From Frankiaceae bacterium (GTDB lineage Bacteria > Actinomycetota > Actinomycetes > JADGOV01): a DNA stretch of 64,000 bases. The stretch's first letter is position 1. The number at the start of each line of letters is the position of its first letter. The DNA lies in contig JADGOV010000001.1 in assembly GCA_017882785.1 (NCBI GenBank), positions 481 to 64,480 on the forward strand, written 5' to 3'. The notes under the pieces are model-generated. The model was given only the letters and a program-made list of their open reading frames with translations. It made no database searches and was not told the DNA's origin. This document shows, in pieces, positions 3,829 through 26,854 of this stretch. Made by a program: the position numbers and the translations under genes.

Positions 3829-4566
3829 ATGAGCGACAGCGCACCCGCTGTGCACGTTGCCACGTCGGCACCGGCCGAGGCCCGGCTGCTCGTCGTGGAC
3901 GACGAGCCGAACATCGTCGAACTGCTGTCGGCGAGCCTGCGGTACGCCGGGTTCGACGTGACCAGCGCGCGTAACGGTCGGGAGGCGCTGAAGGCCGTGC
4001 GTGACTTCCGGCCCGATCTGCTCGTGCTCGACGTGATGATGCCGGACCTCGACGGCTTCGGCCTCCTCCGGCGGCTGCGCAGTGACGGCAGTCGGCTGCC
4101 CGTGCTCTTTCTCACTGCCCGGGACGGCACCGAGGACAAGGTGACCGGGTTGACCCTCGGCGGGGACGACTACGTCACGAAGCCGTTCAGCCTGGAGGAG
4201 GTGCTCGCCCGCATTCGGGCGATCCTGCGACGCAACGGCCCGGCCGATCCGGTGACGACGTCGGCTCGGCTTTCCTTCGCCGATATCGAACTCGACGACG
4301 ACACGCACGAGGTGTGGAAGGCCGGCGAGGTCGTCGCGTTGTCTCCGACCGAGTTCAAGCTGTTGCGCTATTTCCTGCAGAACGCGGGCCGGGTGCTGAG
4401 CAAGGCGCAGATCCTCGACCACGTCTGGCACTACGACTTCGGCGGTGATGCCAACGTCGTCGAGTCCTACGTGTCCTACCTGCGGCGCAAGATGGATACC
4501 ACCGACCCCCGCCTGCTGCACACGCTGCGCGGAGTGGGCTACAGCCTGCGGCTGCCACGGACATGA
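3829..4566 (+). CDS. OmpR-family two-component response regulator
   Basis: Receiver domain ('LLVVDDEPNIVELL...DLLVLDVMMPDLDGF...LFLTARD...KVTGLTLGGDDYVTKPFSLEE') plus a winged-helix C-terminal domain ('FKLLRYFLQNAGRVLSKAQILDHVW'). The ATG at 3829 has an AGGAGG RBS; the ORF-track start at 3598 is an upstream extension. Confidence 0.9.
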   Translation: MSDSAPAVHVATSAPAEARLLVVDDEPNIVELLSASLRYAGFDVTSARNGREALKAVRDFRPDLLVLDVMMPDLDGFGLLRRLRSDGSRLPVLFLTARDGTEDKVTGLTLGGDDYVTKPFSLEEVLARIRAILRRNGPADPVTTSARLSFADIELDDDTHEVWKAGEVVALSPTEFKLLRYFLQNAGRVLSKAQILDHVWHYDFGGDANVVESYVSYLRRKMDTTDPRLLHTLRGVGYSLRLPRT

Positions 4567-6128
4567 TCGCGGCGCCGGGGGCGCACCAGGTCTGGCCGAG
4601 GCGGGCCGGACGGTCGGTGCGGGACCTGGCGGCGCGCACCCCGCTACGGCTGAAGCTGGTCGCTGCCCTGCTCGTGCTGGTGATCGTGGCGCTGGTGACC
4701 GCCGGCGTGGCAGCCACGACCGCACTGCGCGGGATTCTGCTGCAACGCGTCGATGACCAGCTCCGTCAGGCCGCCCGGGCCTCCGTCGGGGGTCCCGGCC
4801 TCCCGGGGGAGGGGGGCGGACGGGCCGGCCGGCCGTTGAGCGAGTACTACGTCGCCTACCTCAGCCCCAACGGGACCCTGGCGGGGGTGCAAACCAGCCC
4901 CTTCGGCGCCGAGGATGCTCCACCGAAGCTGCCCCGGCTCACCCCGGCGGAGGCGTCGGCCCTCGGTGGCAGCACCTTCACGCTGAGCGCACAAGGCGGC
5001 GGTGCGCAGTGGCGTGCCATCGCCCTACCGGCAGCGAATGGCAGCGTGGTGATCTCGCTCAGTCTTGCCGGAGTGCAGCGCACCGTGCACCAACTGGCCC
5101 TCTTGCAGCTGGCCATCGGCGGTGGCGTCGTGGTGCTGCTCGCCGGCGTGGCGTACGTGGTGGTGCGGCGCACCCTGCGGGCGCTGACCGAGGTGGAGGT
5201 CACCGCGGCGGCCATCGCCGCCGGCGACCTGTCCCGGCGGGTCCCGGCTGCCGACCCGCGGACCGAGGTGGGTCGGCTCTCCGCCGCTCTCAACGGCATG
5301 CTCGGCCAGATCGAGCGGGCCTTCCATGTGCAACTCGCGTCTGAGAGCGCCGCTCGGCGATCGGAGTGGCAGATGCGTCGGTTCGTCGCTGACGCCAGCC
5401 ATGAACTGCGTACCCCGCTGACCTCCATCAGGGGCTTCGCGGAGCTGTACCGGCAGGGGGCCGCCGAGGACCCGGAGGATCTTGCCCGCGTCATGCGCCG
5501 CATCGAGGACGAGGCAGCCAGGATGGGGCTGTTGGTCGAGGACCTGCTGCTACTTGCGCGGCTCGACTCGCAGCGGCCGCTGGAACGGACGCTGGTCGAC
5601 CTGCTGACCCTGGCCAACGACGCGGCGCACGACGCCCGGGTCGTCGCGCCGGACCGGCCGATCACCGTGGAGGTGCGGGAGGCGACGACGACCCCGCCTG
5701 TCGTGTGGGGAGACGAGGCCCGCCTCCGTCAGGTCGTCGGCAACCTGATGAGCAACGCGCTCAGCCACACCCCGGCTGGTACGGCGGTCGCCGTGCGGGT
5801 CGGGACCGAGGCTGAGAACGGTCGGACCTATGCCCTGCTCGAGGTCGCCGACCGAGGCCCCGGGCTCGACCCGGCAGACGCCGAACGGGTCTTCGAACGG
5901 TTCTTCCGAGCCGACCAGTCACGCCACCGTGGCTCAGGCGGCAGCGGGTTGGGCCTCTCGATCGCGGACGGGCTGACCACCGCCCATGGCGGGCGGATGG
6001 AGCTGCGGACCAGGGCCGGCGGTGGTGCCACGTTCCGGGTGTTGCTTCCGCTTGCGGACGGGGGGCAGGACGCCGTACTCGGGTCGGGCGCCGCCCCGGT
6101 GGCGACCCCGGTGTCCGGCGGCGGCTGA
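4563..6128 (+). CDS. Sensor histidine kinase (membrane, HAMP-containing)
   Basis: N-terminal TM segment, periplasmic region, second TM and HAMP domain. H-box 'SHELRTPLTSIRGF' and HATPase_c motifs ('DRGPGL...GSGLGLSI'). Start overlaps the regulator stop (ATGA). Confidence 0.85.
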   Translation: MIAAPGAHQVWPRRAGRSVRDLAARTPLRLKLVAALLVLVIVALVTAGVAATTALRGILLQRVDDQLRQAARASVGGPGLPGEGGGRAGRPLSEYYVAYLSPNGTLAGVQTSPFGAEDAPPKLPRLTPAEASALGGSTFTLSAQGGGAQWRAIALPAANGSVVISLSLAGVQRTVHQLALLQLAIGGGVVVLLAGVAYVVVRRTLRALTEVEVTAAAIAAGDLSRRVPAADPRTEVGRLSAALNGMLGQIERAFHVQLASESAARRSEWQMRRFVADASHELRTPLTSIRGFAELYRQGAAEDPEDLARVMRRIEDEAARMGLLVEDLLLLARLDSQRPLERTLVDLLTLANDAAHDARVVAPDRPITVEVREATTTPPVVWGDEARLRQVVGNLMSNALSHTPAGTAVAVRVGTEAENGRTYALLEVADRGPGLDPADAERVFERFFRADQSRHRGSGGSGLGLSIADGLTTAHGGRMELRTRAGGGATFRVLLPLADGGQDAVLGSGAAPVATPVSGGG

Positions 6129-7525: not shown

Positions 7526-7867
7526 GTGGGTGTCAGCGACGGCGACCGTGCTGTGCCGACTCCTTCGTCGGTTCAGGCTCGGGCCCAGCCCGGCTACGCC
7601 GAGACGAAGTCCGAGCAGCTCAAGCGTCTCCGGCGGATTGAAGGCCAGGTGCGTGGCCTCCACCGGATGGTGGAGGGCGACATCTACTGCATCGACGTGC
7701 TCACCCAGGTGTCGGCGGCGACGCGGGCACTGGAGTCGTTCGCGCTCGGCCTGCTGGAGGAGCATCTGGCGCACTGCGTGACCGAGGCGATCGCTGCCGG
7801 TGGGGACCAGGCGCAGGCGAAGGTACGGGAAGCCAGTGATGCCATCGCCCGCCTGGTACGCAGTTGA
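7526..7867 (+). CDS. csoR: CsoR/RcnR-family copper-sensing transcriptional repressor
   Basis: 113 aa. 'LKRLRRIEGQVRGLHRMVEGDIYCIDVLTQVSAATRAL' is the DUF156/CsoR helix bundle, including the metal-ligand Cys of the 'YCIDV' motif. GTG start with an AGGGAGG RBS. Confidence 0.85.
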   Translation: MGVSDGDRAVPTPSSVQARAQPGYAETKSEQLKRLRRIEGQVRGLHRMVEGDIYCIDVLTQVSAATRALESFALGLLEEHLAHCVTEAIAAGGDQAQAKVREASDAIARLVRS

Positions 7868-7918: not shown

Positions 7919-8158
7919 ATGACTACCACCCGTCTTCTCGTGGACGGCATGACCTGCGAGCACTGCGTCGCGGCGGTGACGGCGGAGGTGAGCGCGGTCG
8001 ACGGCGTGCGTGAGGTCACGATCGACCTCGTGCCGGGCGACGCCTCGACAGTGTCGATCACCAGCGATGGTCCCCTCGACCCGGCGCAGGCGGCGGCGGC
8101 GATCGACGAGGCCGGCTACACCCTCGCCACCGCTGAGCGCACACGAGAGAAGCCGTGA
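7919..8158 (+). CDS. copZ: Heavy-metal-associated (HMA) copper chaperone
   Basis: 79 aa with an 'MTCEHC' metal-binding motif and ferredoxin-like HMA fold. Sits immediately upstream of copA. Confidence 0.8.
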   Translation: MTTTRLLVDGMTCEHCVAAVTAEVSAVDGVREVTIDLVPGDASTVSITSDGPLDPAQAAAAIDEAGYTLATAERTREKP

Positions 8159-10476
8159 TGACGACTCCGCCGCAGGCCTCGGCGCGGGTCCCTGACGCCA
8201 CCCGGTTGAGCACCGTCGACCTCGCCGTCGGCGGCATGACCTGCGCCTCCTGCGCCGCGCGCATCGAGAGGAAGCTCAACCGGATCGACGGGGTGACCGC
8301 CACGGTGAACTACGCCACCGAGAAGGCACGGATCAGATATCCGGCGCATGTCGCGCCGGAGGATCTGGTCGCCACGGTGGTCGCGACCGGATACACCGCG
8401 ACGCTGCCGGCCGTACCGACCCCCGACGGGGCGGCGGGGGAGCCTCCGTCACCGGAGTCGGACGAGGCTGCCTTCTACCGGCAACGGTTGCTCATCTCCC
8501 TGACCCTGACCGCGCCCGTGCTGGTACTCGCCATGGTGCCCGCACTGCAGTTCCGCAACTGGCAGTGGGCCTCGCTGACCCTGGCCTCGCCGGTCGTGGT
8601 CTGGGGTGCATGGCCGTTCCACCGGGCGGCGTGGGCCAATGCCCGCCACGGCGCGGCCACCATGGACACGCTGGTCTCGGTCGGTGTGAGTGCCGCCTAT
8701 CTCTGGTCGCTGTGGGCGCTGTTCCTCGGCGACGCCGGTGAGACCGGCATGCGGATGACCTCCACGCTGCTGCCCGCGCGGGGCGGCGGGGCGGACGAGA
8801 TCTACCTGGAGGTGGCCTCCGCGGTCACTGTCTTCATCCTGTCCGGTCGGTTCTTCGAGGCCCGGGCCAAACGCCGATCCGGTGCGGCCCTGCGGGCGCT
8901 GCTCTCGCTCGGCGCGAAGGAGGTCGCGGTCCTCCGCGACTGTTCGTCCGGCCGGGTCGAGGTGCGGGTGCCCAGCGGGCAACTCGCGGTTGGTGACGTC
9001 TTCCTCGTTCGGCCGGGGGAGAAGGTCGCGACCGACGGCGTCGTGGTCGACGGGACGTCCGCACTGGACGCCTCGATGCTCACCGGCGAGCCGGTTCCGG
9101 TCGAGGTGGGGCCCGGAAGTCCGGTCATCGGCGGGACGGCCAACGCCGGTGGGCGGCTCATCGTGCGGGCGACGCGGGTGGGCGCCGACACCCAACTCGC
9201 CCAGATGGCCCGGCTTGTCGAGGACGCACAGAGCGGCAAGGCCGATGTCCAGCGTCTGGCCGACCGGGTGTCCGCGGTCTTCGTCCCCATCGTGCTCGTG
9301 CTGGCCGCTCTCACGCTGGGCGGGTGGCTCGCGGCCGGAGCCAGCGTCACGACCGCCTTCACCGCGGCCGTCGCCGTACTCATCATCGCCTGCCCGTGCG
9401 CGCTCGGGTTGGCCACGCCGACAGCGTTGCTGGTGGGCACCGGTCGTGGCGCCCAGCTCGGCATCATCATCAAAGGTCCGCAGGTATTGGAATCGACCCG
9501 GCGGGTGGACACCGTGGTGCTGGACAAGACCGGCACCGTGACGACCGGCCGGATGGCCCTGCATGACGTGCTGCCGGCGACCGGCACCGACCCCGGGCAG
9601 CTGCTGCGGCTCGCCGGCGGGCTGGAGAACGCTTCGGAGCATCCCATCGCCGCCGCGGTCGCCCAGGGCGCCCGAGCGGCGTCGCCCGACCCACTGCCGT
9701 CGGTGGAGGGCTTCGCCAGTACGCAGGGACTCGGGGTAGCAGGCGTGGTCGACGGGGTCGCGGTCGTGGCCGGGCGCCGGAGCTGGCTCCAGCGTGAGTG
9801 GTCGCTGGTCGTGCCGGCGGAGGTGGCCGCGTCGGCGGACGCCGCCGAGGCCGTCGGGCGGACGGTGATCTACGTCGGTTGGGATGGCCGGGCGCGGGGG
9901 GCTCTCGTGGTGGCTGACGTCGTCAAACCCACGTCGGCGGCGGCCGTCGGCCAGCTGCGCGCCCTCGGTCTGCGGCCCGTGCTCCTCACCGGCGACAACG
10001 AGCGCGCAGCGCGGGCCGTCGCCGCCGAGGTCGGCATCTCCGAGGTCGTCGCGGAGATGCTGCCGGCGGGCAAGGTGGACCTCGTGCGGCAGCTGCAGGC
10101 GGACGGTCGGGTCGTCGCGGTGGTCGGTGACGGCGTCAACGACGCGGCCGCGCTGGCCCAGGCCGACCTGGGGCTGGCGATGGGCACGGGCACCGACGTC
10201 GCCATCGAGGCCTCGGACCTGACCCTGGTACGCGGTGACCTTCGGGCCGCCGGCGACGCGATCGAGTTGTCCCGGGCCACCCTTCGCACGATCAAGGGCA
10301 ACTTGTTCTGGGCGTTCGCGTACAACATGGCCGCGCTGCCGTTGGCCGCGCTCGGGTTGCTCAACCCCCTGATCGCCGGAGCCGCGATGGCGTTCAGCTC
10401 GGTGTTCGTCGTGTCAAACAGCCTGCGGTTGCGCCGGTTCACCCCGCATTCCGGTTCGCCGGCCGCTCCGGAGTAG
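8155..10476 (+). CDS. copA: Copper-translocating P1B-type ATPase
   Basis: N-terminal HMA domain ('GMTCASCAARIE'), the transmembrane 'CPC' motif, the phosphorylation site 'DKTGTVT' and 'GDGVNDAAAL'. Start overlaps the copZ stop. Confidence 0.95.
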   Translation: MMTTPPQASARVPDATRLSTVDLAVGGMTCASCAARIERKLNRIDGVTATVNYATEKARIRYPAHVAPEDLVATVVATGYTATLPAVPTPDGAAGEPPSPESDEAAFYRQRLLISLTLTAPVLVLAMVPALQFRNWQWASLTLASPVVVWGAWPFHRAAWANARHGAATMDTLVSVGVSAAYLWSLWALFLGDAGETGMRMTSTLLPARGGGADEIYLEVASAVTVFILSGRFFEARAKRRSGAALRALLSLGAKEVAVLRDCSSGRVEVRVPSGQLAVGDVFLVRPGEKVATDGVVVDGTSALDASMLTGEPVPVEVGPGSPVIGGTANAGGRLIVRATRVGADTQLAQMARLVEDAQSGKADVQRLADRVSAVFVPIVLVLAALTLGGWLAAGASVTTAFTAAVAVLIIACPCALGLATPTALLVGTGRGAQLGIIIKGPQVLESTRRVDTVVLDKTGTVTTGRMALHDVLPATGTDPGQLLRLAGGLENASEHPIAAAVAQGARAASPDPLPSVEGFASTQGLGVAGVVDGVAVVAGRRSWLQREWSLVVPAEVAASADAAEAVGRTVIYVGWDGRARGALVVADVVKPTSAAAVGQLRALGLRPVLLTGDNERAARAVAAEVGISEVVAEMLPAGKVDLVRQLQADGRVVAVVGDGVNDAAALAQADLGLAMGTGTDVAIEASDLTLVRGDLRAAGDAIELSRATLRTIKGNLFWAFAYNMAALPLAALGLLNPLIAGAAMAFSSVFVVSNSLRLRRFTPHSGSPAAPE

Positions 10477-10483
10477 ATCGCGC

Positions 10484-10560
10484 CGTTCGTGCGTTGGCCT
10501 ACGCTGATCATGCTCGTTCGTACGTTGGCCTGCGCTGATCATGCTCGTTCGTACGTTTCA
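10484..10560. repeat. 31-bp tandem direct repeat, 2.5 copies (cgttcgtRcgttggcctRcgctgatcatgct)
   Basis: Units at 10484-10514 and 10515-10545 differ at 2 positions; a partial third copy covers 10546-10560. Contains the TGATCA and CGTACG palindromes. Confidence 0.8.
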
Positions 10561-10600
10561 CGGGACCCGGGAACGCCCCATTCAGCATGATCGGCGCAGG
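10529..10600. promoter_or_regulatory. 17-bp inverted repeat (cctgcgctgatcatgct ... agcatgatcggcgcagg) with a 38-nt spacer, downstream of copA
   Basis: Arms at 10529-10545 and 10584-10600 match at 16 of 17 positions. Could be a terminator or protein-binding element for the convergent region. Confidence 0.35.
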
Positions 10601-10629
10601 CAGGCGCGCAGGCAGGCGGCGCAGGCAGG
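10593..10629. repeat. Three tandem copies of a cg(g)cgcaggcagg unit (12-13 nt)
   Basis: Read directly from the sequence; continues on from the right arm of the inverted repeat. Confidence 0.7.
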
Positions 10630-10671
10630 CGATGGGGCGAGGTGGGCGGCGGCTCGTGCGGACCTACGCAG

Positions 10672-10737
10672 AGTCCTCTACGCATAGTCCGCTCCACCTA
10701 GTCCTCTACGGATAGTTCCCCGGCACAGTCCTCTCGG
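10672..10737. promoter_or_regulatory. Three direct repeats of an AGTCCTCTACG-containing motif of about 22 bp at 27-28-bp spacing, 80-145 bp upstream of the LPXTG-protein gene
   Basis: Copies at 10672-10682 and 10700-10710 (both agtcctctacg) and 10727-10737 (agtcctctcgg), each followed by a related flanking sequence (catagtcc / gatagttcc). Candidate transcription-factor binding array. Confidence 0.45.
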
Positions 10738-10805
10738 CGTGGCACAGCCTCTTTCGTCACATGAGCGATTACGGTCAGCAATCGACCTGCTACGAGGAGA
10801 GTGTC

Positions 10806-12761
10806 GTGACCCGGATGAAACTGTGGGTGGCCGCCGCCACGGCGGGGTTGGTCACGCTGGCCGGGGTTACTGCTGGCATCTCGTCGGGGGCCGCGGCCGC
10901 TGGCACCGGCTACTCGGTGACGTTCGTCGCCCGGCAGTGCCCGTCGTACGACTCGATCATGGCCAACCGAGCGCGCAACAATATCCAAGAGAGCCTCCGC
11001 GACCTGGGCCCGGATTCGCGCTACAGCCCGGGACAGCCGGTCGACCCCAGCGTCGAGGAGCCGGCCCAGCCGCTCTGCACACCCCTCAACGGTCGGGTCT
11101 TCAGCTTCGGCAACCGCATCGGGGGCAAGGTCGATCATCTCACTGTCGTCTCCGGAGCGAGCCCTCCGACGCCCGCCACCCGCGCCAGCGTCCCGCTGCT
11201 CGCTGCCGACGGCTCGGACACCGGTCGGACCATCGACGGCGCCGTCACTGTCGAGCTCAGCAGGGAACAGCTCGCCCTGGCGCAGCGCGGCAGTTCGCTG
11301 TGGCTCCAGGGTGGCACACCCGCCGACCCGCTGCCGGATCCCACCGTGCACGGCTTCGGGGCGCTGCGCTGTGCCGTCGACAACCTCAACGGCGACAACG
11401 TCGAGTGGATCGGCTACCCCAACGGATACCGGCACCTCTTCTGCTACTACCTCACCGTCCAGATTCCCCCTGCGCCCGGCACGATCCGCGTCGTCAAGAA
11501 GGTGACACCGGACGCCGGCATCGTCGATGAACGGTTCCCGTTCACCGGCAACGTGTCCTACAACCCCGGCGGCACGTTCCAGATCGGCATGACCGGCGGC
11601 GAACCAGCCGGCCTCGACTTCGTTCGCGGCGCGACCCGACCGGGGGACGACCCCTGGACCGTCCGGGAAGATGCCCTACCCGACTGGGTTCTGGAGTCGC
11701 TCGCCTGCACCAGCCGAGGCGGGGGCAGCACGGTGGCGACGGATGGCGCGGCGGCAAGCATTCGGCTGGTCGCCGGTGACCTGGTCACCTGCACCTACAC
11801 CGACGCGCCCGTCAGCCAGGGCATCGTGCTGGTCCAAAAGATCACCAGAGGGGGCACCGGCGGTCCGTTCGGCTTCACCGTCCGCCCGCCCACCGGCTCC
11901 CCGACCTCTTTCACGGCCAGCACAACCGCGGAGGGGGAGGAGGTCGAGGCCGGCAGCGTCAAGGGCAGGTCTGGCCGCTACGCCGTCGAGGAGACCCTGC
12001 CGGCACCGAGCGGAGCAGGCCGCTGGGCCCTCACCGAGGCGATCTGTAACGGAGTGCACACGCCCATCGAGGGCACCACGGTCGACGTCGACGCTACTGC
12101 CGGGGATCCGGCCACCTGCACCTTCACCGACACCTTCACCCCCGCCGGCGAGTTGCGCCTCTCCAAGATCACATCCGGTGGCACCGGCACCTTCTCCTAC
12201 GAGATCATCCCCGACCCGCCGTTGCGGCTGAGCGAGGCGCTCAACCCCCGGCGGTCGGTGACCACGACGGCGCAAGGTGTGCCGGTGTCGGCCGAGCCGG
12301 TCCGGAGGTTGGCGATGGGCCGGTACCTGGTGACCGAGTTCGCGCCACCGGTCACGGGAGGAGCCTGGACATCGAAGACGATCGACTGTGGGGACAACCA
12401 TGACGTCGTGCTCCGCAACGGGCAGATCGACGTCGAGCTGACAGCGGAGAACCCGGTGGCCGACTGCAGGTTCGCCAATCATCGTGTCCCCCCGCTACCG
12501 CCCAAGCCGAGTCCGACCGTCACCCCCCGCCCGCCGGTCTCGCCCACCCCCACAGCCAGCAACGAGATCACCATCGCCCCGGGCATTCCCCCGAGCACGC
12601 CGCCCGTCTCCCTCGGGGAGGGGCGGTCCACTCGACGGGGCTCCGCGTTGCCCTTCACCGGACTGGGTCTGATCGCGCTGCTCGCTGTCGCGGCGGGCGC
12701 CGTTGGCCTCGGCGTGGTGTTCCTTGGCCCGCTCCGCCGCCACCGTAGGGGGTCCGGGTAG
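10806..12761 (+). CDS. LPXTG-anchored cell-surface protein with three tandem SpaA-like/prealbumin-fold domains (putative adhesin)
   Basis: Signal peptide 'MKLWVAAATAGLVTLAGVTAG'. Three repeats of an approximately 110-aa domain ('KITRGGTGGPFGFTV...DPATCTFTD', 'LSKITSGGTGTFSYEI...'), then a Pro/Thr-rich stalk. C-terminal 'LPFTG' sortase motif with hydrophobic helix and 'RRHRRGSG' tail. Start is GTG 10806 or ATG 10815. Confidence 0.8.
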   Translation: MTRMKLWVAAATAGLVTLAGVTAGISSGAAAAGTGYSVTFVARQCPSYDSIMANRARNNIQESLRDLGPDSRYSPGQPVDPSVEEPAQPLCTPLNGRVFSFGNRIGGKVDHLTVVSGASPPTPATRASVPLLAADGSDTGRTIDGAVTVELSREQLALAQRGSSLWLQGGTPADPLPDPTVHGFGALRCAVDNLNGDNVEWIGYPNGYRHLFCYYLTVQIPPAPGTIRVVKKVTPDAGIVDERFPFTGNVSYNPGGTFQIGMTGGEPAGLDFVRGATRPGDDPWTVREDALPDWVLESLACTSRGGGSTVATDGAAASIRLVAGDLVTCTYTDAPVSQGIVLVQKITRGGTGGPFGFTVRPPTGSPTSFTASTTAEGEEVEAGSVKGRSGRYAVEETLPAPSGAGRWALTEAICNGVHTPIEGTTVDVDATAGDPATCTFTDTFTPAGELRLSKITSGGTGTFSYEIIPDPPLRLSEALNPRRSVTTTAQGVPVSAEPVRRLAMGRYLVTEFAPPVTGGAWTSKTIDCGDNHDVVLRNGQIDVELTAENPVADCRFANHRVPPLPPKPSPTVTPRPPVSPTPTASNEITIAPGIPPSTPPVSLGEGRSTRRGSALPFTGLGLIALLAVAAGAVGLGVVFLGPLRRHRRGSG

Positions 12762-13112
12762 GGCTGGTACCGCTTGGTCCGCTCCGCGTTAGGTTACCCG
12801 GCACTGATCCCGGCTGACGGACTCAGGGCACGGGCCCCTGGAGGGGGCCGTCACCGACACGGCGTTGCCGACGAGCAGCCTCACGGGAAACGTGGTCGCT
12901 CCGTGCTGGGACGACCTCATCATTCGGCCGCACTCGTCCACCGTCGTGGACGGCATCTTCGTCAAGACCAAGGGCCGTGCTCCGCATCGGACGTGGATTG
13001 TCTCCTGGCGCGGCGTCGACTTCGCCACGCAGGGCACGACCGTTCGGTTCGAGGCCAGCTTCACGGAGCGCTCGCAGCAGCGGGCTGGGAAAGCGGCCAG
13101 CGGCCACCCGGG

Positions 13113-23284: not shown

Positions 23285-24400
23285 GTGAAGGTCGGCATCC
23301 CGCGCGAGGTCAAGGATCATGAGTACCGGGTGGCAATCACCCCGGCAGGTGTCCACGAGCTTGTCCGTCATGGCCACAGCGTGTTTGTGGAGAAGGAGGC
23401 GGGCCTTGGCTCGTCTATCCCGGACAACGACTACATCGCCGCTGGCGCTGAGATCATCGGTATCGCCGATGATGTCTGGGCCGAGAGCGAGCTCATTCTC
23501 AAGGTGAAGGAACCCATCGCGTCGGAGTACCACCGGATGCGGCGCGGACAGTTGCTGTTCACCTACCTGCACCTGGCGGCCTCGCCGGCGTGCACCACGG
23601 CCGTGCTGGACAGCGGCATCACCTCGATCGCTTACGAGACCGTGCAACTCGAGGACGGCTCCCTGCCGCTGCTCGCCCCGATGTCCGAGGTGGCCGGCCG
23701 GATGGCCCCGCAGGTCGGTGCCCACCTTCTGGAGCGCGAGGCGGGTGGCCGCGGCGTGCTCATGGGTGGCGTCTCCGGCGTGCCCGCGGCCAAGGTCGTC
23801 GTGCTCGGCGCCGGTGTCTCCGGTATGAACGCCGCGGCGATCGCGCTGGGCATGCAGGCCGAGGTGCTGCTGTTCGACAAGAACATCGCCAAGTTGCGCG
23901 AGGCGGACCGGATCTACCAGGGTCACCTGCAGACCGTCGCCTCCAACCTCTACACCGTCGAGCGGGCCTGCCTGGACGCCGACCTGGTGATCGGCGCTGT
24001 TCTGGTCACGGGCGCGAAGGCACCGAAGCTGATCAGTGACGACCTGGTCTCCCGGATGAAGCCGGGATCGGTTCTGGTCGACATCGCCGTTGACCAGGGT
24101 GGCTGCTTCGAGTCCACCCGGCCGACGACGCACTCCGACCCGATCTTCCGGGTGGCCGACTCCACGTTCTACTGCGTGGCGAACATGCCGGGCGCGGTGC
24201 CGCACACCAGTACCTACGCGCTCACCAACGTGACGCTGCCCTACGCCGTGGAGATCGCAGACCGTGGACTGCGCGAGGCCGTACTGGCTGACCCGGCTCT
24301 GCTTCCCGGCGTGAACTCGGTCGACGGCCAGCTCACCTGCGCGCCTGTCGGCGAGGCAAACGGCATCGAGAGCGTCGAGGCGCTCAGCGTGCTCGTGTAG
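23285..24400 (+). CDS. ald: Alanine dehydrogenase
   Basis: 'VKVGIPREVKDHEYRVAITPAGV' N-terminus and NAD-binding 'VVVLGAGVSGMNAA'. 371 aa from the GTG at 23285. Confidence 0.9.
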   Translation: MKVGIPREVKDHEYRVAITPAGVHELVRHGHSVFVEKEAGLGSSIPDNDYIAAGAEIIGIADDVWAESELILKVKEPIASEYHRMRRGQLLFTYLHLAASPACTTAVLDSGITSIAYETVQLEDGSLPLLAPMSEVAGRMAPQVGAHLLEREAGGRGVLMGGVSGVPAAKVVVLGAGVSGMNAAAIALGMQAEVLLFDKNIAKLREADRIYQGHLQTVASNLYTVERACLDADLVIGAVLVTGAKAPKLISDDLVSRMKPGSVLVDIAVDQGGCFESTRPTTHSDPIFRVADSTFYCVANMPGAVPHTSTYALTNVTLPYAVEIADRGLREAVLADPALLPGVNSVDGQLTCAPVGEANGIESVEALSVLV

Positions 24401-24527
24401 TTCGAGTTCCCTTCCGTTTCTTCGGGTTCCTTTCTGTTCTTCCCTCTCGGCGGCAGTCGGGCGGTCGCCACACCGGCGCACCGCCCGATCCCCGCCGTGT
24501 CCTCCGCTTGTCTCACAGGAGACCTTC

Positions 24528-26072
24528 GTGACGTCCAACGCAGCTACCAAGCCCGCAGAAATCGGTGATCCGCTCACCGACGACCTGCACCGGGGTCTCA
24601 AGTCCCGGCATATCCAGATGATCGCTATCGGCGGCGCCATCGGCGTCGGCCTCTTCCTCGGCTCCGCGACAGCCATCCAGAAGGCCGGTCCGGCGCTCCT
24701 GCTCAGCTACGCGGTCGCCGGCGTGGCGATCTTCTTCATCATGCGTGCCCTCGGCGAGCTCATGCTCTACCGACCGGTGTCCGGTTCCTTCGCCACCTAC
24801 GCCGACGAGTTCATCGGCAAGTGGGCCGGCTTCGCCACCGGCTGGACCTACTGGTCGATGTGGATCGTCACCGCGATGGCCGAACTCACGGCCGTCGGCA
24901 TCTACATGAACTTCTGGTTCCACATCCCACAGTGGCTACCGGCACTGGTTGCGCTGGTCGTGCTGTACATGCTCAACCTGATTGCTGTTCGGCTCTTCGG
25001 CGAGATCGAGTTCTGGTTCGCCATCGTCAAGGTGCTCACCATCGTCATGATGATCGTGATCGGCGTCGGCATCCTCATCTTCGGGTTCAGCAAGATCGGC
25101 GACACCGCGAGCGTCAGCAACCTGTGGAGCCACGGCGGCTTCTTCCCCAAGGGCATCACCGGCCCGTTGCTGGCCCTGCAGATGGTCGTCTTCGCCTTCC
25201 TCGGCGTGGAACTCATCGGTGTGACCGCCGGCGAGGCCGAGAACCCGGAGCGGGCCATTCCCAAGGCTGTCAACCAGGTGATCTGGCGGATCGGCATCTT
25301 CTACATCGGCGCCCTGACCGTCATCTTCTCCCTGCTTGCCTGGACCAACCTCGACGGCAAGACCAGCCCCTTCGTCTACGTCTTCGAGAACATCGGCATC
25401 CCCGCCGCCGCCGGCATCATCAACTTTGTGGTGCTCACGGCCGCCTTGTCCTCCTGCAACAGCGGCCTGTTCTCCACCGGCCGGATGCTCTTCGCGCTGT
25501 CCCGTCAGGGTCAGGCCCCCAAGGCGCTGGGTCGTGTGGGTAGCCGCGGCGTGCCGTCGAACGCGCTGCACGTGTCCTTCGCCGTCCTGCTCCTCGGCGT
25601 CGTGCTCAACTACCTCGTGCCGGAGAAGGCCTTCATCTATGTCACCAGCATCGCCACCGTCGGCGCGCTGTGGGTGTGGGGCGTCATCATGGTGTCGCAC
25701 CTGCGTTACCGCAAGGCCGTGGCCGCGGGCACCGTCCCGGCCAGCACGTTCCGGATGCCAGGAGCGCCCTACAGCAACTATGGGGTCCTGGGCTTCCTGG
25801 GCCTGGTCTTCATCCTGCTCGGCTTCGACGCCAGCAACCGGATCGCGCTCTACGTTGCCTTCCCCTACGCCGGCCTCCTGGCCATCGGGTACATGCTGAG
25901 CCGAAAGCACAACCGAGTGCCGGCTGTCAGCGTCAGCCCGGTGATCATCGACAGCGTGAGTGTCGAGGACGTGAGTGGCGAAGAAGTGAGTGTCGAGGAC
26001 GTGATTCCTGACCACGTGGAAGTCTTCCTTGCGCAGAACGCGGACCGCGTGCTGGAGGGCGCCGTGCACTGA
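24528..26072 (+). CDS. APC-superfamily amino-acid permease (AroP/CycA/GabP type) with an acidic repeat-containing C-terminal extension
   Basis: 'GLKSRHIQMIAIGGAIGVGLFLGSA' signature, 12 TM helices, and about 45 extra C-terminal residues ('SVSPVIIDSVSVEDVSGEEVSVEDVIPDHVEV'). 128 bp downstream of ald on the same strand. Confidence 0.85.
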   Translation: MTSNAATKPAEIGDPLTDDLHRGLKSRHIQMIAIGGAIGVGLFLGSATAIQKAGPALLLSYAVAGVAIFFIMRALGELMLYRPVSGSFATYADEFIGKWAGFATGWTYWSMWIVTAMAELTAVGIYMNFWFHIPQWLPALVALVVLYMLNLIAVRLFGEIEFWFAIVKVLTIVMMIVIGVGILIFGFSKIGDTASVSNLWSHGGFFPKGITGPLLALQMVVFAFLGVELIGVTAGEAENPERAIPKAVNQVIWRIGIFYIGALTVIFSLLAWTNLDGKTSPFVYVFENIGIPAAAGIINFVVLTAALSSCNSGLFSTGRMLFALSRQGQAPKALGRVGSRGVPSNALHVSFAVLLLGVVLNYLVPEKAFIYVTSIATVGALWVWGVIMVSHLRYRKAVAAGTVPASTFRMPGAPYSNYGVLGFLGLVFILLGFDASNRIALYVAFPYAGLLAIGYMLSRKHNRVPAVSVSPVIIDSVSVEDVSGEEVSVEDVIPDHVEVFLAQNADRVLEGAVH

Positions 26073-26097
26073 CCGCGCATGGCGCGACGCAAGCGTT

Positions 26098-26129
26098 TGC
26101 GGGCCGGCACCACGGAGGTGCCGGCCGCA
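26098..26129. terminator. GC-rich hairpin (gcgggccggcacc-acgga-ggtgccggccgc) between the convergent permease and LamG genes
   Basis: 12-13-bp near-perfect stem with a 5-nt loop. Positioned to terminate transcription from both strands. Confidence 0.5.
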
Positions 26130-26170
26130 ACGCTGTGCGCGGATCGGCGCGGATCAGGAGAACCGGTCGA

Positions 26171-26854
26171 TCAGCCGATCCGCAGTGCCACCTCGTCCAT
26201 GTCGCCTGGGTAGGAGTGCACCCCGTTCGCCTTGCCGCCGAACAGCAGCGGTGAGGCATTGGCGATGCTGCCCAGCCCGGTGGTCGTGGTGGCTCGCGTC
26301 CTGCCGTCCACACTGATGGACACCGAGGAGGCGGTCCGGCGGCAGAGTACGGAGTGCCACCGGCCGTCGGCGATGTCGGTGTCTCGGGACTTCACCACGA
26401 CAGCCTTGCCGGTTCCGTCGACGAAGGTGCACCTTGGCTTGCCGACACCGCGCTGCAGAGTGCCGCCGAGCTCGACCTTGTACTGGCCGCCCAGGGTGGT
26501 CGCGCGGCCCTTCTGCAGCACGTTGTAGTCACCGGTGCTCAAGTTGCTGGGCACCCGCAGCCACATGGACACGGTGAAGGGCTTGGTGCCCGGGTCGAGC
26601 GCGGTCGCGTCCGGCACGGTCACCACGCCACCGGCGAAGTGGAAGGCGTGTCCGGAATAATCGGGCACGCCCGCAGTCACCGCACCACTGATCTGCCCGT
26701 TGTTGGCCGGGTTCGTGGCATCGTGCGCCACGGTCGCGCCAGCGGGCTCGTCCAGGTGCCAGAGACCTACAGTTGCCGGTGCCGCCTGCGCGCCGGCCGG
26801 CAGCATCAGGACGGCGGCAGCGGACGTGACGAGTACTGCGGAAGCACGCTTCAT
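26171..26854 (-). CDS. Secreted protein with concanavalin-A-like/LamG-type jelly-roll domain
   Basis: Signal peptide 'MKRASAVLVTSAAAVLMLPAGAQAAPA'. 'LWHLDE...GHAFHFAGG...FTVSMWLR...DGRWHSV...' matches the LamG/laminin-G_3 pattern, including the conserved Trp. Confidence 0.6.
   Translation of the reverse strand: MKRASAVLVTSAAAVLMLPAGAQAAPATVGLWHLDEPAGATVAHDATNPANNGQISGAVTAGVPDYSGHAFHFAGGVVTVPDATALDPGTKPFTVSMWLRVPSNLSTGDYNVLQKGRATTLGGQYKVELGGTLQRGVGKPRCTFVDGTGKAVVVKSRDTDIADGRWHSVLCRRTASSVSISVDGRTRATTTTGLGSIANASPLLFGGKANGVHSYPGDMDEVALRIG

Follow-up and report, generated by a model that had tools for sequence, protein, structure and literature searches.

Organization of the copA-adhesin locus

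We analyzed a 64-kb stretch of DNA, referred to throughout as the window (64,000 nucleotides, approximately 70% GC), from an uncultured actinobacterium whose best named CopA relatives are Angustibacter, Rhodococcus, and Nocardioides (73-76%). Genes for V-type ATPase subunits are followed by a response regulator and histidine kinase pair, an MFS transporter gene on the minus strand, a csoR/ricR-like gene, copZ, copA, a 329-bp spacer, and a gene for a surface protein (the adhesin). Past the adhesin gene, on the opposite strand, there are genes for hypA, hycI, cytochrome b, and NiFe hydrogenase. The order csoR-copZ-copA was also present in two related contigs, L002 and L010. The genes that bear on the spacer are the following.

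3829-6128: OmpR/PhoB-family response regulator and histidine kinase pair, approximately 4.3 kb upstream of the spacer
7526-7867: csoR/ricR-like gene for a CsoR/RicR-type repressor
7919-8158: copZ
8155-10476, plus strand: copA (Cu+ P-type ATPase), final gene of the csoR-copZ-copA operon, stop codon at 10474-10476; Pfam matches to E1-E2_ATPase, Hydrolase, and HMA, and NCBIfam ATPase-IB1_Cu above cutoff
10806-12761, plus strand: surface protein gene, 651 amino acids; Pfam PF24514 (SpaA_4 prealbumin-fold) in three stretches

These profile matches agree with the original prediction, which had placed a copper P-type ATPase upstream of the spacer and an LPXTG-type surface protein downstream of it. 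It had also been noted that no cognate regulator is encoded next to the spacer. None adjoins it, but the OmpR/PhoB-family pair and the CsoR/RicR-type gene both lie on the copA side at the positions given above.

The surface protein has a signal peptide (MTRMKLWVAAATAGLV...) and a C-terminal sorting signal made up of LPFTG, a hydrophobic segment, and RRHRR. Gene callers start the adhesin gene at an ATG at 10761. The start codon is likely the GTG at 10806, because a GAGGAG ribosome binding site (10794-10799) followed by this GTG and the signal peptide fits better; the start chosen by the callers is then probably 45 nt too far upstream. The adhesin belongs to a cluster of 13 sequences that are at least 90% identical, and the next homologue is 47% identical. 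This does not fit the earlier description of the region as a core locus, since outside that cluster the best homologue of the adhesin reaches only this level. There were no flanking repeats marking the adhesin gene as a mobile cassette.

The closest CopA relative (contig L009, 80% protein identity) has csoR-copZ-copA in another neighborhood, with an unrelated downstream spacer and with the adhesin absent next to the operon. Because the adhesin has no homologues between 90% and 47% and the spacer of this relative is unrelated, the spacer can be compared at the strain level only.

Tandem arrays and a stem-loop in the spacer

The spacer contains three tandem arrays, a stem-loop that overlaps two of them, and a proximal region next to the adhesin gene.

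10484-10557, no strand assigned: 31-bp tandem array; TRF 2.4 copies, 95% matches, score 134
10524-10606, plus strand: two-tier stem-loop, with an outer 18-bp stem (10528-10545 paired with 10584-10601) and an inner hairpin (10554-10575)
10592-10631, no strand assigned: 13-bp tandem array, CGGCGCAGGCAGG; TRF 3.2 copies, score 73; unit 1 at 10592-10604
10592-10660, plus strand: G-rich tract over the 13-bp array and the GGGG/GGG runs that follow it; 38 G and 19 C in 69 nt
10664-10745, plus strand: degenerate 14-bp minisatellite with a unit of about CTCTACGCATAGTC; TRF call at 10664-10716 with period 14, 3.8 copies, 74% matches, score 64
10697-10805, plus strand: proximal upstream region, present in all haplotypes; the homology of contig L011 begins at 10697 and contig L012 begins at 10700

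The repeats are real and well above chance. TRF reported 19 rows with a score of at least 50 in the window and four with a score of at least 64, and three of these four fall inside the 330-bp spacer. Dinucleotide shuffles of the window gave 1.5 rows at a score of at least 50 and 0.2 rows at a score of at least 64 per 64 kb.

Much of the anatomy originally described was recovered, with small shifts in the boundaries. The 31-bp tandem, given as 2.5 copies at 10484-10560, consists of two full units (10484-10514 and 10515-10545) and a 12-nt partial copy (10546-10557). The tandem of three copies of cg(g)cgcaggcagg at 10593-10629 corresponds to the 13-bp array, and the 17-bp inverted repeat formed with 10584-10600 was found as an inverted repeat of 18 nt.

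The fourth element, described as three 22-bp direct repeats at an even spacing of 27-28 bp, is the best-preserved units of a degenerate 14-bp tandem array. Copies of AGTCCTCT do exist at 10672, 10700, and 10727, but the 22-bp unit and the period were wrong: identity among the copies spans no more than 11-17 nt, and the third copy is 71% identical. Cores of this type begin at 10672, 10686, 10700, 10714, and 10727, giving an array of approximately 4-6 units, in which those at 10686 and 10714 are weaker; a further weak unit, read by eye, lies just past the array at 10746. Successive cores are 14, 14, 14, 13, and 19 bp apart, and distances of 28 and 27 bp separate the better-kept ones (26 bp in L011). 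The array ends approximately 60 bp before the start codon of the adhesin gene.

The inverted repeat (18 nt, 94% complementary, arms 38 nt apart) is the cleanest short-range inverted repeat of the 64-kb window, and the stem-loop built on it starts 48 nt past the copA stop codon. The predicted RNA fold of 10524-10606 has a minimum free energy of -48.2 kcal/mol and a z-score of -6.6, and none of 200 shuffles was equally stable. The raw stability is not extreme at 70% GC, where 1.8% of 84-nt windows reach -48 kcal/mol or lower. The second 31-bp unit contains the whole 5' arm, and the first 13-bp unit shares part of its sequence with the 3' arm. The tandem duplication behind the 31-bp array thus takes in the 5' arm, and the one behind the 13-bp array begins within the 3' arm.

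The original prediction had suggested a terminator or insulator after copA, and the strong stem-loop is compatible with this idea, but not in the form of a canonical intrinsic terminator. Like such a terminator, the spacer has a GC-rich hairpin past the stop codon. It differs in having an unusually long stem of 18 bp and a structured loop of 38 nt, and in lacking the U-rich tract of 7-9 nt that would follow the stem: position 10601 is followed by AGGCGCGCAGGCAGGCGG, and the 18 nt past the stem contain no T. A scan of the spacer for the terminator consensus and for sigma-70 promoters gave no sites. Purified mycobacterial RNA polymerase does not terminate in vitro at structures that lack a U-tract (PMC3993855), so the hairpin is more likely an exonuclease barrier or a pause site than a stand-alone terminator. 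Stem-loops mark transcript 3' ends in Rho-independent and Rho-dependent termination alike (PMC13613805).

Other operon-final genes in the window are also followed by strong stem-loops without a U-tract, at 26068-26175 (z-score of -4.8) and at 24396-24530 (z-score of -3.7), and the second of these is preceded by a pyrimidine-rich 20-bp tandem repeat. The comparable structures at other operon ends suggest a general role at transcript 3' ends. There was no Rfam family in the region at E ≤ 1 or in the whole window at the gathering score, and no tRNA or tmRNA gene was found in the window. We also considered a small ORF in the spacer and rejected it, as a 31-bp insertion or deletion would shift its frame and the sole minus-strand ORF has no protein-like character.

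The two tracts that follow the stem-loop differ in composition. The G-rich tract (10592-10660) has no significant fold (z-score of -0.19). The tract over the 14-bp array is C-rich, G-poor, and unstructured (fold z-score of 0.17); its C/G ratio of 1.97 at 10674-10751 is within the top 0.4% of 78-nt windows, and ratios near 2 are also found within coding regions. A rut site has been described as a 78-nt window with more C than G and regularly spaced C residues (11-13 nt apart), free of structure and translation (PMC6407284). The C-rich tract past the copA stop codon has this composition, with a period of 13-14 nt that is slightly above the quoted range, and it fits a putative rut-like region in that respect.

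Compared with Rho-dependent and other non-canonical terminators (PMC13613805, PMC6407284), the spacer resembles them in its GC-rich stem-loop after the last stop codon of the operon, in its unstructured, untranslated 78-nt tract with a C/G ratio near 2, and in the regularly spaced pyrimidine patches of that tract. It differs in its order, with the hairpin first and the C-rich tract after it, and in that the tract, a candidate only, is a decaying 13-14-nt repeat and overlaps the upstream region of the next gene.

We searched for copies of the repeats elsewhere because the original prediction had raised the possibility of a small non-autonomous repeat element. The 31-bp unit was found only at this locus within the 64-kb window. 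Its 22-nt core had one match among 185,579 GTDB representative genomes, from which the host species is apparently missing; this match, in an AT-rich Eubacteriales MAG, we judged to be due to chance. In a scan of JGI metagenomes, the same core was found at the same locus only, including a new strain with 1.5 copies (L008). A blastn search with the whole spacer against plasmids and phages gave no match. An imperfect palindrome in an intergenic region, with short direct repeats at its sides, is what would be expected if the 31-bp units and the inverted repeat were one copy of a dispersed mobile or REP/MIRU-like element. With a single locus in the window and in the JGI data, this reading is extremely improbable.

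The other repeat motifs behaved similarly, and none of the three units recurred in the 64-kb window beyond chance. Outside the arrays, AGTCCTCTACG, CTACGSATAGT, and GCGCAGGCAGGCG occurred there at chance level. For the motif of the 14-bp array, 10 occurrences were observed and 9.4 expected in one count, and 20 observed and 12.8 expected in another, where three of the 20 are the array itself. The search for motif copies proposed in the original prediction thus found neither a dispersed family nor an enrichment in the window.

Copy-number variation among closely related strains

We compared the spacer with 11 metagenome contigs from the same species-level lineage, which show 98.2-99.6% identity across the greater part of their length (95% overall for L005). 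The alleles described below were taken from metagenome assemblies of short reads, in which strains may be collapsed or mixed; the arrays (40-80 nt) are, however, shorter than the k-mers of 133-141 nt named in several of the contig records.

All three arrays vary. The 31-bp array has 2.5 copies in the window and in L002, L003, L004, and L013, and 1.5 copies, through a 31-bp deletion, in L001, L005, L008, and L010. The junction of the shorter form is in one register in L001, L008, and L010 (GGCCTACGC) and in another in L005 (GGCCTGCGC). In the allele shared by L003 and L013, both full 31-bp units carry identical substitutions, indicating that they have been homogenized. The two junction registers together with the homogenized units call for a minimum of two to three independent events, or for recombination; recombination between strains is not separable from recurrent slippage. 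The 13-bp array has three units in most haplotypes, four in L005 (an insertion of 13 bp), and three units minus GCAG in L003 and L013. In L005, three near-perfect units of 15 bp (CCTACGCATAGTCNC) take the place of the 14-bp array, and the two proximal cores come after them. L011 is homologous to the window only from 10697 onward; the 78 nt before this position differ or are rearranged.

The variation is concentrated in the spacer. In pairwise alignments totaling approximately 57 kb, 151 of the 155 indel columns fall within its 329 bp. The arrays would explain why contigs end in this spacer: L008, L012, and L013 break at or beside them, L008 ending just past the 13-bp array and L012 starting exactly at 10700. 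Such breaks may hint at copy-number heterogeneity within a population. Units that are arranged head to tail beyond chance expectation, differ between strains by whole copies, and have changed recurrently are those of a VNTR or minisatellite. Because all three arrays differ in copy number between near-identical strains, we view the spacer as an ordinary hypervariable region and not as a set of ordered regulator sites.

The outer stem was kept through these changes. L003 and L013 have 11-14 substitutions at 10497-10582, compared with a background of approximately 0.7-1.6%, and 6-8 of the substitutions are in the 38-nt loop, which is 16-21% diverged. In these two strains the inner hairpin is remodeled and the outer stem still folds (z-scores of -5.2 and -4.6). 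The outer 18-bp stem was present in all nine haplotypes that cover it. Because the compared haplotypes are all very close, the persistence of the stem says little about selection.

These data bear on the simplest alternative, that the hairpin and the three arrays arose by accident through slippage in a spacer under no constraint and contribute neither to RNA 3'-end formation nor to adhesin expression. Copy number and unit sequence drift freely among near-identical strains, in L011 all sequence upstream of 10697 is replaced or rearranged, and the downstream spacer of the 80% CopA relative is unrelated. The failure to find an Rfam family or a consensus terminator or promoter in the spacer would be expected on the same grounds. 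Such neutrality does not readily explain why the outer stem persists in every covering haplotype despite the divergence of the loop in L003 and L013, nor why comparable strong stem-loops lie at other operon ends of the window. On balance, it seems rather unlikely that the spacer is entirely without a role.

The closest described phenomenon is the intergenic VNTRs of Mycobacterium tuberculosis (MIRU-VNTR; the lpdA, cysG, and dop promoter repeats; PMC12817950). These promoter tandem repeats have units of 54-58 bp, lie 12-29 bp upstream of genes, and differ in copy number both among strains and inside a single strain (PMC12817950). As in our spacer, the units are in tandem upstream of a gene in a high-GC actinobacterium, and copy number has changed recurrently among very close strains. 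In contrast, the spacer has units of 13, 14, and 31 bp and packs three arrays into 330 bp. Its most variable arrays are at the 3' end of the upstream gene, where they sit on a 3'-end hairpin, instead of 12-29 bp from the downstream gene. No unit demonstrably holds a promoter.

The adhesin upstream region and the possible role of the spacer

The part of the spacer nearest the adhesin gene is stable. Over its last 110 bp, length is essentially constant, with one 1-nt indel among the haplotypes. The region 10697-10805 contains two of the cores (10700-10710 and 10727-10737), the hexamer TACGGT (10770-10775), and the GAGGAG ribosome binding site. TACGGT is the sole TANNNT hexamer, and none was found inside the repeat units. 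The adhesin promoter and 5' UTR probably lie in this region; the hexamer is altered to TGCGTT in L012, which makes the assignment of the promoter itself weak.

The position of the putative promoter is relevant to the possibility that the arrays act as a contingency switch, in which promoter tandem repeats of changing copy number alter transcription of the adhesin gene, through promoter strength or spacing or through read-through from copA, and produce heritable, reversible variation of a surface protein, as described for the M. tuberculosis promoter tandem repeats. The arrays are directly upstream of a surface-protein gene, and they vary between near-identical strains through recurrent events. 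A nonsense mutation in the adhesin gene of one strain fits variable selection on this gene, and the copy number of the M. tuberculosis repeats has been linked to expression changes (PMC12817950). We nevertheless regard a switch of this kind as unlikely. The most variable arrays (31 bp and 13 bp) are on the copA side, 175-320 bp upstream of the start codon, whereas the gene-proximal 110 bp hardly changes in length, and the only -10-like TANNNT hexamer is downstream of all the repeat units, at 10770.

The original prediction had favored evenly phased sites for a multimeric regulator of the response-regulator or SARP/OmpR type, with the AGTCCTCT-centered repeats as putative activator sites controlling the adhesin gene. 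Several observations are in line with an OmpR/PhoB-family protein, a SARP, or another activator. The two proximal cores were present in all haplotypes, including L011, and are approximately 70-105 bp upstream of the adhesin start codon, in a region with no recognizable -35 element. Direct repeats upstream of a promoter without a clear -35 element are a feature shared with such sites, and genes for an OmpR/PhoB-family response regulator and its kinase are encoded 4.3 kb upstream.

The spacing of the repeats is difficult to reconcile with this reading. PhoB-type boxes follow the same one-helical-turn logic as SARP sites. SARP sites are direct repeats of a heptamer with spacers of 4-15 nt, classically in units of 11 bp, which implies distances of 11-22 bp (PMC10972967). 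A center-to-center distance of 10-11 or 22 bp would be expected for either class, and the repeats in the spacer have a period of 14 bp (15 bp in L005), compared with the classical 11-bp unit and the 11-22 bp derived from the quoted spacers (PMC10972967). The conserved cores are 26-27 bp apart, which would put successive sites on different faces of the helix.

The repeats also vary between strains. L005 carries an altered distal core, L011 has other sequence in the region of this core, and the third core is polymorphic (G/A). No regulon copies of the motif were found in the 64-kb window, where it is not enriched. The response regulator is separated from the repeats by four genes, matched no specific equivalog, and is not an adjacent cognate regulator. 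The activator-site reading is thus poorly supported, and we consider it quite improbable, although the two proximal cores could conceivably serve in this way.

The spacer holds a strong hairpin with duplicated arms and a separate 14-bp minisatellite, in arrays that vary between strains and have no copies elsewhere in the sequences searched. We favor, as moderately probable, the explanation that it is a locus-specific cluster of three short VNTRs that formed on and next to the stem-loop at the 3' end of the csoR-copZ-copA operon. The arrays would arise by replication slippage or unequal recombination, favored by the hairpin and by short flanking direct repeats. A 12-nt direct repeat (CGTTCGTRCGTT) that brackets the 5' arm may help slippage or unequal exchange, and the copy number of the arrays would be close to neutral.

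According to this explanation, cop transcripts would end stably in the stem-loop, which would block 3'-to-5' exonucleases, make RNA polymerase pause or terminate, or do both. On transcripts that read through it, the unstructured C-rich tract with its 14-nt periodicity could be a Rho-loading (rut-like) region. Together, the stem-loop and the tract may insulate the adhesin gene from copper-induced read-through, and the adhesin gene would be transcribed from a promoter of its own in the final ~110 bp, which are conserved (10697-10805).

If this explanation is correct, the spacer is an ordinary case of two things, the intergenic VNTRs of high-GC actinobacteria and the U-tract-less stem-loops at operon ends. 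The tandem duplication of both arms of one hairpin would illustrate how secondary structure can seed local duplication, and the arrays are a ready marker for strain typing in an uncultured lineage. The locus would have a larger significance only if copy number tunes adhesin expression or terminator read-through. We think it very unlikely that the spacer is a contingency locus in which the number of arm or 14-bp-array copies tunes the share of copper-induced cop transcription halted ahead of the adhesin gene, or the strength of the adhesin promoter. Were this the case, tandem-repeat copy number would act on a terminator or insulator and not on a promoter, and sub-populations of an uncultured soil actinobacterium would differ heritably in the display of an LPXTG surface protein.

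Sequence divergence around the copA-adhesin spacer

We compared the window with related metagenome contigs of the same species-level lineage. In one of these, L005, divergence from the window was 13% over the 3' part of copA (from 10121 up to 10386) and only about 1.7% beyond that point. The low-divergence stretch comprises the following:

from 10387: last 90 bp of copA, spacer, adhesin gene and downstream spacer

The step at 10386/10387 is either a recombination junction within copA or the product of a chimeric metagenome contig. In two further contigs, L003 and L013, 11-14 substitutions (about 13-16%) were found in a single patch at window 10497-10582, and the rest of these contigs had 0.7-1.6% divergence. 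Only the hairpin loop and the 31-bp units were affected; the outer stem was preserved.

The adhesin gene and its flanks

Because the window sequence is common to contigs L011 and L012 solely from 10697/10700 to about 12956-12964, and the 78 nt upstream of the shared stretch in L011 differ from the window or are rearranged, the adhesin gene and its 110-bp proximal upstream region behave as a module with a variable left flank. A search for repeats flanking this module (window 10697-12964) found none.

Gene callers place the start of the adhesin at ATG 10761, giving 666 aa. A shorter product of 651 aa, starting from GTG 10806, is favoured by the ribosome-binding site GAGGAG at 10794-10799 and by the signal peptide. 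In one strain, a TGG-to-TAG nonsense change (L013 position 1556, window 12025) splits the adhesin into ORFs of 421 aa and 235 aa. The surface protein may be one that the cell can do without, or selection on it may vary.

The 351-bp spacer 3' of the adhesin contains a protein-like plus-strand frame at 12880-13112, read by eye (...GIFVKTKGRAPHRTWIVSWRGVDFATQGTTVRFEASFTE...), for which there was no match in Pfam. This frame may be a gene remnant. A gene was called in the corresponding downstream spacer of L005.

Tandem repeats and operon-end hairpins

Downstream of the nearest copA relative (80% protein identity, contig L009), the spacer at 12420-12590 contains a pair of direct repeats of ~45 nt (TGTCGGGACGACC...GCTTACAGC), unrelated in sequence to the repeats of the window spacer. 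Over the whole window, TRF detected 19 arrays with a score of at least 50, whereas dinucleotide shuffles give an expectation of 1.5. As judged from this 64-kb window, the host genome thus has a general excess of short tandem repeats, in coding and non-coding sequence alike.

Two further operon-end spacers of the window contain strong GC-rich hairpins without a U-tract:

24396-24530: hairpin, z -3.7
26068-26175: hairpin, z -4.8

A pyrimidine-rich 20-bp tandem repeat (2.2 copies) lies upstream of the hairpin at 24396-24530. The presence of hairpins at these additional operon ends suggests that 3'-end architecture of this type is genome-wide.
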